Shown: positions 1 through 43,959 of the stretch, in pieces | Layout of the letters: the number at the start of each line of letters is the position of its first letter | Position numbering within the stretch: the first letter of the stretch is position 1 | From: a virus | Taxonomy: Duplodnaviria; Heunggongvirae; Uroviricota; Caudoviricetes | IMG/VR virus record: IMGVR_UViG_2925914267_000003 | Coordinates: 1-43,959 of that record | Reading direction: 5' to 3' (one strand) | Length of the DNA: 43,959 nt | Made by a program: the position numbers and the translations under genes | The notes under the pieces: model-generated | What the model was told of the DNA's origin: nothing | Database searches by the model: none | Seen by the model: only the letters and a program-made list of their open reading frames with translations

Positions 1-657
1 ATGAAAAAAAACACAGATGATGGGGCTAAAATTTACACACCACTTACCCTAAAGCTTTATGACTGGTGGGTTTTGGGAGTATCAAATCGGCTTGCATGGG
101 GATGCCCTACAAAGGAACACCTTCTTCCACACTTTCTGGAACATTTAGGTAACAACCATCTGGATATTGGTGTTGGCACTGGGTTTTACCTTACTCACGT
201 ACCTGAGAGTAGTCTGATATCTTTAATGGATTTGAACGAAGCTAGCCTGAACGCGGCATCTACAAGGGCTGGGGAATCAAAAATTAAACATAAAATTAGC
301 CATGATGTTTTTGAACCTTATCCCGCGGCGTTACATGGTCAATTTGATTCCATTTCCATGTTTTACCTTCTTCACTGCCTGCCTGGAAATATATCTACAA
401 AAAGCTGTGTAATACGCAATGCGGCGCAGGCCTTAACTGACGATGGAACTCTATACGGAGCCACAATTCTTGGCGATGGAGTTGTGCACAATAGCTTCGG
501 TCAAAAACTGATGCGCATTTACAATCAGAAAGGCATCTTTTCAAACACAAAAGATTCCGAAGAAGGCTTAACACATATACTCTCAGAGCATTTCGAGAAT
601 GTTAAAACCAAGGTTCAAGGTACTGTAGTAATGTTTTCCGCTTCAGGGAAAAAATAG
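1..657 (+). CDS. class I SAM-dependent methyltransferase, substrate unknown
   Basis: 218-aa track ORF; glycine-rich SAM-binding motif LDIGVGTGFY; no DPPY/NPPY or C5-cytosine MTase motifs, so not an obvious DNA methyltransferase; convergent to the tail-fibre genes. Confidence 0.55.
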   Translation: MKKNTDDGAKIYTPLTLKLYDWWVLGVSNRLAWGCPTKEHLLPHFLEHLGNNHLDIGVGTGFYLTHVPESSLISLMDLNEASLNAASTRAGESKIKHKISHDVFEPYPAALHGQFDSISMFYLLHCLPGNISTKSCVIRNAAQALTDDGTLYGATILGDGVVHNSFGQKLMRIYNQKGIFSNTKDSEEGLTHILSEHFENVKTKVQGTVVMFSASGKK

Positions 658-27581: not shown

Positions 27582-27656
<75 letters not shown>

Positions 27657-27659
27657 ATA

Positions 27660-27735
<76 letters not shown>

Positions 27736-27737
27736 AC

Positions 27738-27814
27738 TGGCCCGCCACCGAGGACTCGAACCTCGCACCATCAACTTAGAAGGTTGATGCTCTATCCGGA
27801 TGAGCTAGTAGCGG
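27738..27814 (-). tRNA. tRNA-Arg (anticodon UCU)
   Basis: 77-nt cloverleaf: anticodon stem TCAAC/GTTGA, loop CTTCTAA, T-arm CGAGG TTCGAGT CCTCG, 3' CCA encoded. Confidence 0.7.
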
Positions 27815-27815
27815 C

Positions 27816-27891
27816 TGGTGGCCCTTGCTGGATTTGAACCAGCGACCTGGCGATTATGAGTCGCTCGCTCTCACCACTGAGCTAAAGGGCC
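27816..27891 (-). tRNA. tRNA with CAU anticodon (Ile2/lysidine type or Met), ileX/ileZ-like
   Basis: 76-nt cloverleaf GGCCCTTTAGCTCAGTGGTGAGAGCGAGCGACTCATAATCGCCAGGTCGCTGGTTCAAATCCAGCAAGGGCCACCA; resembles E. coli ileX as remembered. Confidence 0.75.
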
Positions 27892-41809: not shown

Positions 41810-41870
41810 TGTTCAACCGTCGCCAGTTGTCGTTGGTATTCTGCAACTGGCGCGTTCCGGAGTGATAGCC

Positions 41871-42140
41871 ATGAGCGAACAGTACCTGATAACGCTCGAC
41901 GAGTGGAAACCAAAACGGTTCAGTCTCCCAATAACAAACACTACCCTGGTGAAATACGGAAAACTAGGATACATCGTTCCAAGACCACAAAAAATTCGTG
42001 GGCGTTGGCTGATAGATCGCCGGGCAGTATTTGTTGGACCTGGTGAAACGGGAATTGCGCCAGAAATTCATACTGGCGATGATAATGCACTGAAGGAGAT
42101 TTTAACTCATGTCACCGAGGCCACGAAAAAACAGCACTGA
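41871..42140 (+). CDS. excisionase-like protein
   Basis: track ORF trimmed to ATG (MSEQYLITLDEWKPKRF...); immediately upstream of and overlapping int; Xis-like YLTL.EW segment. Confidence 0.5.
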   Translation: MSEQYLITLDEWKPKRFSLPITNTTLVKYGKLGYIVPRPQKIRGRWLIDRRAVFVGPGETGIAPEIHTGDDNALKEILTHVTEATKKQH

Positions 42141-43236
42141 CGTAGCCGGTCTTTACGAAAAGTTTGATCGCAGAACTGGCAGGGTTTACTACCAGTATAA
42201 AAACCCTGTGACTGGAAAATTTCACGGTCTCGGAACAGACAAAGGCAAAGCAGAAAAAATCGCTTCCACAGCCAATCAGCGAATAGCTGCAGCAGAAGCT
42301 GAATATTTCATGCGCAAAATTGATGAAAGTCCGTCAGCAACAAAACGTCGGGGTATCAGATTAAAGGCATGGGTTGATCGATATCTGAAAATACAGGACA
42401 CGCGACTGAAAAATGGAGATATTGCAGCTACAACTCACAAAGAAAAAACTCGAATGGCTGCATACCTGGTTTCCCGTCTGGGAAACCACCCATTGAAAGA
42501 ACTGGAAGTAAGAGACTTTGCATTAATACTGGATGAGTGGCTGGATAAAGACATGGTCAGTACAGCGAGAGTAAATCGCGGATTATGGGTTGATATTTAT
42601 AAAGAAGCACAGCATGCAGGGGAAGTTCCTCCTGGATGGAATCCTCCGGAGGCCACCCGTAAACCGATCCCTAAAGTAACCAGAGCCAGACTCACCCTGG
42701 AAGACTGGCAAAAAATTTACAACGCAACGCCTGAAAAACACTTTATCCGTAACGCAATGCTCCTTGCGATTGTTACTGGTCAGCGCCGTGATGACATTTG
42801 CCACATGCGTTTTTCAGATGTGTGGAACGAACACTTGCATATCACCCAGGGAAAAACCGGAATGCGTCTGGCGTTACCGCTTACACTACGCTGTGATGCT
42901 ATTGGGATAACGTTAAAAGAAGTTATTGATGGGTGCCGAGACAGAATATTAAGTCCATATCTAATCCATAGTCGGCACCAGAAACAACCAAAGCCGATGA
43001 GTAAAGACAACCTGAGCGACTACTTCGCCAAAGCACGGGATCTGGCTGGGATAATTCCACCAGCAGGAAAAACTCCGCCAACATTTCATGAACAACGCTC
43101 CCTGTCAGAACGACTGTACCGTGCGCAGGGTATTGATACAAAAACATTACTGGGACATAAAGTTCAGGCAACCACCGATCGTTATAACGATACTCGTGGT
43201 CAGGAATGGGTTAAATGGGTTAAATTGGTTATTTAA
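42109..43236 (+). CDS. int: tyrosine integrase (lambda Int family)
   Basis: 375-aa ORF at the prophage end; catalytic-domain features (R...HxxR...Y region: LLGHKVQATTDRYNDTRGQEW) and overall lambda-Int-like layout. Confidence 0.9.
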   Translation: MSPRPRKNSTDVAGLYEKFDRRTGRVYYQYKNPVTGKFHGLGTDKGKAEKIASTANQRIAAAEAEYFMRKIDESPSATKRRGIRLKAWVDRYLKIQDTRLKNGDIAATTHKEKTRMAAYLVSRLGNHPLKELEVRDFALILDEWLDKDMVSTARVNRGLWVDIYKEAQHAGEVPPGWNPPEATRKPIPKVTRARLTLEDWQKIYNATPEKHFIRNAMLLAIVTGQRRDDICHMRFSDVWNEHLHITQGKTGMRLALPLTLRCDAIGITLKEVIDGCRDRILSPYLIHSRHQKQPKPMSKDNLSDYFAKARDLAGIIPPAGKTPPTFHEQRSLSERLYRAQGIDTKTLLGHKVQATTDRYNDTRGQEWVKWVKLVI

Positions 43237-43416
43237 TAAGATATTTGCCATAAAAACATAATTGCCATCTTGAATGTATACTGATAGTATGATTCGAATT
43301 TAAACTTGCACTGTCGTTTAACTTATGCGGGAGAATAGGAGATTTACTATGCTTTGTATTTCTTATCAGCACAATGAAATTCTCCCATAGTAATGAATAA
43401 CATTAGTACACAGATA

Positions 43417-43959
43417 TCATAAATTAATAACATCCGCATTAAAATATGTTGAAAAATCTGATTTATACTTTGATAAACTTAACAATGAATGATGTAACTC
43501 CCTTTTGAACCACTTATCCTGGTTAATTCCTAAAGCCACTAGCTTATCAAAAGGATTAGATGAAGATATAAAATCTCGCTTAAAATCTGCAACTCCAGAT
43601 GTCTTGCATTTACAAAACGAAGCGATCAATTTATTTAAAGTTACAGAGCAGCAATACGCGATTTCCTCTTCGAAATTTCTGGTCTGTTGCAATAAAAAAA
43701 TCGAATGTTTTCTGCTTGCTAAGTAATTAACATTCTGAATAAATCTATCAACCCTATCAATAACATCACTATCAAAAACAACTATTAAATCACAATTTTT
43801 AGGTATGTTAACTGCATATTTCTTTATATCATCAACCCAAAAATTCTTCTTGACAATTTTTTTGAATTTAATCAAACCTTTTTGCTTCATCTTTTGAAAC
43901 AAGGCATACTCTGTTTCACCTTCAACAAAAATAATTTTTGCGTTCTGATTTTTTGACAT
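43417..43959 (-). CDS. RloB-like Toprim-domain protein (AbiLii-like), AT-rich
   Basis: 180-aa ORF starting at the last base of the window; N-terminal IIFVEGETEYALF and later VVFDSD resemble the two Toprim acidic motifs of RloB/OLD-family proteins; very AT-rich unlike the prophage. Confidence 0.45.
   Translation of the reverse strand: MSKNQNAKIIFVEGETEYALFQKMKQKGLIKFKKIVKKNFWVDDIKKYAVNIPKNCDLIVVFDSDVIDRVDRFIQNVNYLASRKHSIFLLQQTRNFEEEIAYCCSVTLNKLIASFCKCKTSGVADFKRDFISSSNPFDKLVALGINQDKWFKRELHHSLLSLSKYKSDFSTYFNADVINL

Follow-up and report, generated by a model that had tools for sequence, protein, structure and literature searches.

Systems that combine an ABC ATPase with a Toprim nuclease have been described in several arrangements. 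Burman et al. (PMC11464382) place AbiL and MADS3-4 in one group of ABC + Toprim systems with PARIS, together with the fused OLD and GajA proteins. AbiL requires both of its genes, according to the citation of Deng 1999 in PMC13064643. For two of these systems the nuclease is known to cut tRNA, i.e. for AriB of PARIS (PMC11464382) and for P2 OLD (2026 OLD preprint). In E. coli the AbiLii protein of Fusobacterium nucleatum proved toxic, and its toxicity was not relieved by AbiLi provided in trans (Dy et al. 2014, PMC3985639); this protein is a possible member of the family described below.

Here we compare with these systems a gene pair whose second gene forms the end of the window, i.e. of the whole stretch of 43,959 nt of caudoviral DNA that was analysed (IMG/VR record IMGVR_UViG_2925914267_000003). 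The pair is probably an AbiL-like member of the split ABC-ATPase + Toprim anti-phage class, carried as a prophage cargo operon and acting by abortive infection; we put the probability of this reading at roughly 0.7. The role that we propose may also be worded as that of an abortive-infection or superinfection-exclusion module. The features of the locus are as follows, with the closest complete genome, L001, as the reference for positions outside the window:

41862..42140, plus strand: excisionase gene (Pfam Exc, E = 7.7e-5; annotated as excisionase in L001-L003)
42109..43236, plus strand: gene for a lambda-type tyrosine integrase of 375 aa, which bounds the cargo slot (Arm-DNA-bind_1, E = 3.8e-21; Phage_integrase, E = 1.9e-18)
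43237..43416, no strand: AT-rich spacer of 180 bp, left edge of the cargo slot (GC 30.6%)
43417..43959, minus strand: Toprim-type gene, the second of the pair, for the predicted nuclease effector (ORF of 180 aa)
43957..43959, minus strand: ATG of the Toprim gene, read on this strand from the three bases that end the window
~43959-45152, minus strand: ATPase gene, outside the window, extrapolated from L001 (13050-14243)
~45412-45444: promoter region and att arm with three TTTTGGRGA repeats, outside the window, extrapolated (L001 14503-14535)
~45492-45503: att core, outside the window, extrapolated from L001
~45514: ATG of potC, outside the window, extrapolated from L001

An earlier note on this DNA had pointed to a very AT-rich gene at the end of the window and to Toprim-type acidic motifs in its product, and both statements hold. 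The ORF of 180 aa has a GC content of 29.1%, compared to 30.6% for the spacer 43237-43416 and 52.5% for positions 1-43236 of the window. The two cited motifs are present in the protein, i.e. IIFVEGETE at residues 9-17 and VVFDSD at residues 60-65 (within LIVVFDSDV), and they are conserved in the family alignment. The N-terminus of the product is MSKNQNAKIIFVEGETEY. The ATG at the window edge is the true start, because in L001 an in-frame TGA is found five codons upstream of it, with no alternative start codon in between.

The initial homologue search with the 180-aa protein yielded 16 clusters, all from Enterobacteriaceae, all annotated as 'hypothetical', and none with a Pfam domain. The profile of the close homologues retrieved 348 representatives at E <= 1e-3 and 124 at E <= 1e-10 among 1.84 billion representative proteins, with family members counted as cluster representatives at 50% clustering. 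Nearly all of them have a length of 160-190 aa, and the family was seen in Proteobacteria, Fusobacteria, and Clostridia. In 131 aligned members D63, D65, and E97 are invariant, and nine further residues (E13, G14, E17, N39, N76, Q92, N95, E99, and K127) are shared by 90% or more of the sequences. A search for related loci with a narrow family alignment returned four loci, and the gene region had no match at the DNA level in the phage collection.

The AlphaFold2 model of the protein, calculated from the close-homologue alignment, had a pLDDT of 87.8 and a pTM of 0.83. It is composed of four parallel strands (residues 8-12, 34-37, 57-63, and 86-92) that alternate with helices, and of a helical C-terminal half. 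E13 and E17 directly follow strand 1, D63-x-D65 is located at the end of strand 3, and N95-F-E97-E-E99 follows strand 4. According to this predicted model, the acidic residues are placed where the Toprim fold requires them. The hallmarks of the Toprim superfamily, i.e. a Glu after strand 1, a DxD at the end of strand 3, and a four-stranded parallel sheet, were thus found in the alignment and the predicted model. Fold searches were consistent with Toprim, without being specific. Foldseek with the model returned nothing from the PDB at E <= 1e-3, and among the PDB sequences the family profile had a borderline match to the small Toprim protein 1t6t (E = 0.12). A match of the profile to GmaR in the same sequences was rejected as likely spurious.

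The sole Pfam match of the 180-aa protein was OLD-like_TOPRIM, with an E-value of 0.01 and a score below the gathering score, and the NCBIfam search gave noise only. The PADLOC profile AbiLii matched with E = 5e-4 and 18.7 bits, whereby a short stretch of the profile was aligned. Among the 131 relatives, Pfam matches were found to OLD-like_TOPRIM (17 proteins, best E-value 1.1e-6), to RloB and DUF3226 (three proteins each), and to Toprim, Toprim_2, and DUF4276 (one each). PADLOC AbiLii was matched by 82 of the 131, with a best E-value of 1e-7, and was the top PADLOC family for these.

The product had also been called RloB-like, which is correct for its N-terminal Toprim core. Alignment of the family profile to a genuine RloB protein (Pfam RloB, E = 4.9e-28, 99 bits) with hhalign resulted in a probability of 94.7% and an E-value of 6e-8 for the N-terminal 68 columns only, and both motifs are inside this region. 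Membership in the Pfam family RloB (PF13707, gathering score 31.5 bits) was rejected: the 180-aa protein has no match to it at E <= 1, and 3 of the 131 relatives match, the best with 9.5e-4. Taken together, the predicted model, the alignment of 131 sequences, the OLD-like_TOPRIM and AbiLii matches of the relatives, and the hhalign result support the assignment to Toprim made previously. The protein belongs to the Toprim superfamily, and within it to the OLD/RloB/AbiLii group; its family lies outside the coverage of Pfam and the PDB.

The earlier note had further predicted an ATPase gene upstream of the Toprim gene, outside the window. The region past position 43959 was accessible via other carriers of the cassette, and the ATPase gene was found there. 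A search of 5426 complete E. coli genomes found the int end together with the Toprim gene in eight (94-97.6% identity; for example NZ_CP015240.1, 3977118-3979238). In all eight the gene for an ABC ATPase of 397 aa, annotated as 'AAA family ATPase' or 'ATP-binding protein', is directly upstream of the Toprim gene on the same strand. The same layout was found in all six examined contigs that encode an identical 180-aa protein, with the order exo, xis, int, the 180-aa gene, the 397-aa gene upstream of it, potC, and potD. The junction between the two genes reads ...ATATAATGTCA..., so that the stop codon TAA and the ATG share one base (TAATG). The window ends before the ATPase gene, and its presence in the window's own genome is expected from all other carriers.

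The label AbiL-like, which the earlier note had also used, fits this ATPase. It matches PADLOC AbiLi (PDLC02335) with E = 1.4e-24 and 84.7 bits over residues 3-392, i.e. nearly the full length; the search was run with the ATPase of L001, to which the cassette DNA in the window is 99.4% identical. Further PADLOC matches were mad3 (7.5e-13), AriA (1.5e-9), and PtuA (1.1e-7), and Pfam matches were AAA_15 (4.8e-8) and AAA_21 (2.9e-5, 24.7 bits, just under the gathering score of 27). In 57 ATPase homologues the invariant positions are the Walker A residues G53 and G58-K59-T60, the ABC signature residues R263, S265, and G267, the Walker B residue D302, and the switch histidine H335; E303 is retained in 90% or more. 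The closest structural neighbours are the heads of Rad50 and SMC proteins; phmmer with the ATPase against the PDB returned nothing useful. A tblastn search of plasmids (PLSDB) with the ATPase reached no lactococcal plasmid and had one Acinetobacter plasmid as its sole match, and the link to the founding AbiL therefore stands at the profile level only.

Adjacent ATPase/Toprim pairs were found in E. coli, Citrobacter, Erwinia, another member of the Enterobacteriaceae, Stenoxybacter (35% identity), Fusobacterium, Clostridia, Klebsiella, and the Acinetobacter phage Ab105-3phi. Across these pairs the ATPase gene is always first, the gap ranges from -8 to +3 nt, and the two proteins diverge in parallel. 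The pair is mobile into known defence hotspots. The homologous pair of Klebsiella is located between gpQ (portal) and gpA (replication gene A) of a P2-like prophage, and the gpA-gpQ defence hotspot of P2 holds old and tin (Rousset et al., PMC9122126). In Fusobacterium animalis the pair is found two genes downstream of GajA/GajB (Gabija). In Stenoxybacter and Clostridia the homologues have housekeeping genes as neighbours, and neither a mobile element nor a defence gene is visible around them. In other E. coli strains (L010/L011 8637-16534), a 53%-identical pair adjoins a polyvalent protein of 2792 aa with the domains LPD5, LPD1, MuF_C, and LPD38.

To locate the pair relative to the prophage boundary, the empty potB/potC junction of K-12 was compared with both lysogen junctions, which defined an att core of 12 bp, TGAATAAGAAGG. 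At the empty site potB passes straight into potC (...cgtttgcTGAATAAGAAGGtggaactcgaATGatc). In the lysogen 2011C-3911, phage DNA begins after ...cgtctgcTGAATAAGAAGGcaaccgaaatagatgattag on the potB side, and the lysogen potC side reads ...ccaccttaTGAATAAaAAGGtggaactcgaATG; strain A19 has the exact TGAATAAGAAGG at this position. The core abuts potC, 1533 bp past the Toprim ATG and thus past the last base of the window (L031, L033). Three direct repeats of the consensus TTTTGGRGA precede it by 50-90 bp (TTTTGGGGA, TTTTGGAGA, and TTTTGGAGA at L001 14503, 14516, and 14527, i.e. with spacings of 13 and 11 nt). All three are identical in prophages of different cargo, and they are likely to be the arm-type sites for the Arm-binding domain of the integrase.

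The earlier note had expected the core in the 180-bp spacer next to int, had viewed the pair as a possible defence island beside the prophage, and had suggested a comparison of both prophage ends. This comparison led to a different picture. In the spacer (43237-43416) no copy of the core was found when up to two mismatches were allowed; it is located about 1.53 kb past the window end, next to potC, and the boundary is not at int. As the core abuts potC and none is present between int and the cassette, the cassette is on the phage side of the core and inside the prophage. Judged from these junctions, it sits in a potB/potC lambdoid prophage, in a replaceable slot that extends from the int stop codon to the conserved att arm. 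The spacer itself had no Rfam match, and a search for inverted repeats that could indicate a terminator or a structured RNA revealed short ones of 8-9 nt only.

The integrase gene is annotated as such in related genomes and is convergent with the Toprim gene. Homology to prophages with other cargo is lost at the int stop codon (about 43221-43236). The slot is bordered by int and the att arm and contains two genes only. In four strains, among them E24377A and O103:H2 12009, prophages that share this integrase have a DUF2335 gene and a small ORF in the same slot. When the DUF2335 and the ATPase/Toprim cargo are compared, homology breaks at the int stop codon and returns 90-135 bp before the core. 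The DUF2335 cargo is present in 211 and the ATPase/Toprim cassette in 8 of the 5426 complete genomes, the latter always in the int-att slot. The exo-xis-int block of the window is 92-96% identical to seven carrier loci (L001, L030-L035), compared to 99.4% for the cassette and L001, which suggests that the cassette has spread recently across mosaic prophage backbones.

Several additional observations were made at the prophage ends. In E24377A the alternative cargo (L003 4405-5053) encodes a DUF2335 protein of 155 aa and an ORF of 67 aa, and this pair could be another defence or exclusion candidate. The int gene of the window has a tandem duplication of 9 bp at 43208-43225 (gttaaatgg gttaaattg, ...EWVKWVKLVI) that is absent in L001, L002, and L003 and explains the 375 aa of its product compared to 372 aa. 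Integration changes the end of PotB from ...RLLNKKVELE* to ...RLLNKKATEIDD* (L004 18868-18900, lysogen 2011C-3911), and it separates potAB from potCD by the entire prophage. At the opposite end of the window (1-657, plus strand), an ORF of 218 aa resembles, by eye, a class I SAM-dependent methyltransferase with the motif LDIGVGTGF. It is probably cargo at the tail-fibre end, and the other att site would therefore be outside the window, too. Tandem integration, in which the cassette would be left over from an older element at this attB, was considered and rejected: a third core copy is lacking, and the left break coincides exactly with the int stop codon.

Low-GC DNA gives rise to many spurious features, and the 180-aa ORF might have arisen by chance from the AT-rich sequence or be what is left of a decayed gene, in line with the lack of a match above any Pfam gathering score. 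However, stop codons are frequent in AT-rich DNA, and nevertheless 180 codons are open; moreover, the 348 family representatives have invariant catalytic-type residues, the synteny with the ATPase is kept across phyla, and the structure model is confident. Conservation refutes a chance ORF, and its probability is practically nil. The location of the pair has also been interpreted differently, i.e. as a chromosomal island that lies by the integration site but outside the prophage, the att core being placed in the 180-bp spacer. Such an island would be compatible with a cassette that is far more AT-rich than phage and chromosome alike, and with homology to most related prophages that stops right at the int end. 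In contrast, the empty K-12 site has nothing between potB and potC, and the 12-bp core occurs only at the potB end and directly before potC, with no copy between int and the cassette. In addition, the 90-135 bp before the core, including the three TTTTGGRGA repeats, are common to prophages of different cargo, and the cassette was only ever found with this int (8 of 8 genomes). By this comparison of junction sequences the island is refuted, and we regard it as very improbable.

The remaining alternatives concern the function of the pair. It might mainly stabilise the prophage as an addiction or toxin-antitoxin module, in which the Toprim protein would be the toxin and the ATPase the antitoxin, and it would have no anti-phage role. 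The tight coupling of the genes would suit such a module, as would the toxicity of the Fusobacterium AbiLii in E. coli (PMC3985639) and the formal resemblance of PARIS to a type II toxin-antitoxin pair (PMC13064643). The failure of AbiLi in trans to neutralise AbiLii (PMC3985639) argues against it, and so do the relatives of the pair in defence hotspots and beside Gabija and the finding that the pairs of ABC ATPase and nuclease characterised so far are phage sensors. A role restricted to addiction is thus unlikely; addiction and defence are not mutually exclusive. We consider it rather improbable that the pair serves phage DNA metabolism or integration, i.e. that a RecF/Rad50-like ATPase and a Toprim nicking enzyme act in recombination or replication instead of defence. 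Its vicinity to int, xis, and exo and the structural proximity of the ATPase to Rad50 and SMC heads would agree with this, and Toprim domains are also known in primases, topoisomerases, and RecR. However, the DUF2335 pair takes its place in about 210 related prophages and the cassette is present in only 8 of 5426 genomes, and the pair is therefore dispensable. Furthermore, it moves between lambdoid, Mu-like, P2-like, Acinetobacter phage, and chromosomal sites, and its own orientation and a GC content of 30% are those of a moron-type insertion.

The preferred reading is an AbiL-like defence operon. The weak matches of the small protein itself, the profile-level link to the founding AbiL, and the homologues among housekeeping genes count against it. 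For this reading the following mechanism can be envisaged. The first cistron encodes a Rad50/SMC-type ABC ATPase of 397 aa and the second a stand-alone Toprim protein of 180 aa, and the two would be translationally coupled at the TAATG overlap. The operon would be transcribed from its own AT-rich upstream region, convergently with int, and could be expressed in the lysogen. A promoter-like site, TTGACG-17-GATACT, is present upstream of the pair. Because the genes face int and have their own AT-rich upstream region with this site, expression from a repressed prophage is plausible. An oligomer of the ATPase may keep the nuclease inactive and may sense a signal of an infecting phage. Sensing would free or activate the Toprim protein, and its predicted two-metal acidic site (E13/E17, D63/D65, and E97/E99) would then cut nucleic acid, so that the infection aborts. 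Candidate targets are tRNA, as for PARIS AriB and P2 OLD, or DNA, as for GajA. We infer the defence phenotype, the roles as sensor and effector, and the nuclease target from homology and location.

In view of tRNA as a candidate target, a group of tRNA genes in the window is of interest:

27582-27891, minus strand: four tandem prophage tRNA genes, i.e. Gly(UCC), Lys(UUU), Arg(UCU), and one with a CAU anticodon

The tRNA with the CAU anticodon was called Met by ARAGORN, and the tRNA-Ile annotated by PGAP in matching arrays is presumably the same gene. The exact array was found in only one of the 5426 complete E. coli genomes, and variants are present in about 600, some of them with Thr instead of Lys. 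Both PARIS AriB and PrrC target tRNA-Lys(UUU), and the prophage tRNA-Lys could therefore be counter-defence cargo; its anticodon stem presumably differs from that of the host lysT. The tRNA-Lys does not strictly co-occur with the cassette, as the carrier 2011C-3911 has only Ile and Arg.

The pair is probably a divergent member of the known ABC-ATPase + Toprim class; its predicted effector is unusually small and belongs to a family that has neither a Pfam model nor a solved structure. As a case of moron exchange, the slot from int to the arm is useful but not surprising. Should lysogens be protected by the pair, a compact representative of 1.7 kb would be added to this class. Because the effector has 180 aa, about half of AriB, and no Pfam model, the pair would be a convenient minimal system for the gating of a Toprim nuclease by an ABC ATPase. 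The slot of the potB/potC lambdoid prophages could be mined for more systems, e.g. the DUF2335 pair with its 211 genomes. For annotation, a two-gene defence candidate should be recorded, with the 'hypothetical protein' beside this integrase as its effector, and the boundary of the prophage belongs at potC instead of int. A more far-reaching view appears doubtful to us, i.e. that the Toprim proteins of about 170 aa (348 representatives, no Pfam model, no solved relative) are a distinct effector family and a minimal branch of split ABC-ATPase/Toprim defence, and that the int-att-arm slot is a hotspot for the swapping of defence systems comparable to those of P2 and P4. In its boldest form, the effector would be an anticodon nuclease, and the tRNA array of the prophage would supply cleavage-resistant tRNAs that let the phage grow despite its own or PARIS/PrrC-type nucleases.

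The comparison with known systems is as follows. MADS is a multi-gene locus (mad1-8), whereas the slot holds two genes only, despite the mad3 match of the ATPase (7.5e-13). In the OLD family (P2 Old, Thermus scotoductus OLD, GajA, and the OLD of retron Eco8), ATPase and Toprim are on one polypeptide, whereas they are on two here; the fusion typical of Class 1 OLD and Gabija is thus replaced by two separate ORFs. GajA cleaves DNA. Compared to Gabija and retron Eco8, the system also differs in having no UvrD/GajB partner and no retron. The nuclease of PARIS, AriB, is a DUF4435 Toprim nuclease of 35 kDa. In contrast, the effector described here is about half this size, and DUF4435 (PF14491) was found neither in the protein nor among the families listed for its relatives. 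The match of the ATPase to AbiLi (1.4e-24) is stronger than that to AriA (1.5e-9). The pairs of RloB (PF13707) with an AAA_21 partner have the same gene order, an effector of similar size (about 180-190 aa), and a homologous N-terminal Toprim core, and a genuine RloB pair was recovered through the common FVEGETE motif (L017). The difference lies in the C-terminal half of the protein, which does not align and in which QQTxNFEEE and DFKRDFI replace the RloB motifs. Also among the closest described systems is AbiL of the Lactococcus lactis plasmid pND861, together with the AbiL class of PADLOC/DefenseFinder. The lactococcal AbiL differs in its vehicle, a lactococcal plasmid versus an enterobacterial prophage, and in the sizes of its proteins, i.e. 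about 458 aa for AbiLi and about 297 aa for AbiLii versus 397 and 180 aa, and the small protein matches AbiLii with only E = 5e-4 and 18.7 bits. Both are two-gene operons in which the ABC ATPase precedes a stand-alone Toprim protein, an organisation that is apparent here from the 1-nt overlap and the conserved adjacency, and AbiLi and AbiLii are the PADLOC families that the ATPase (1.4e-24) and the small protein, respectively, match best.
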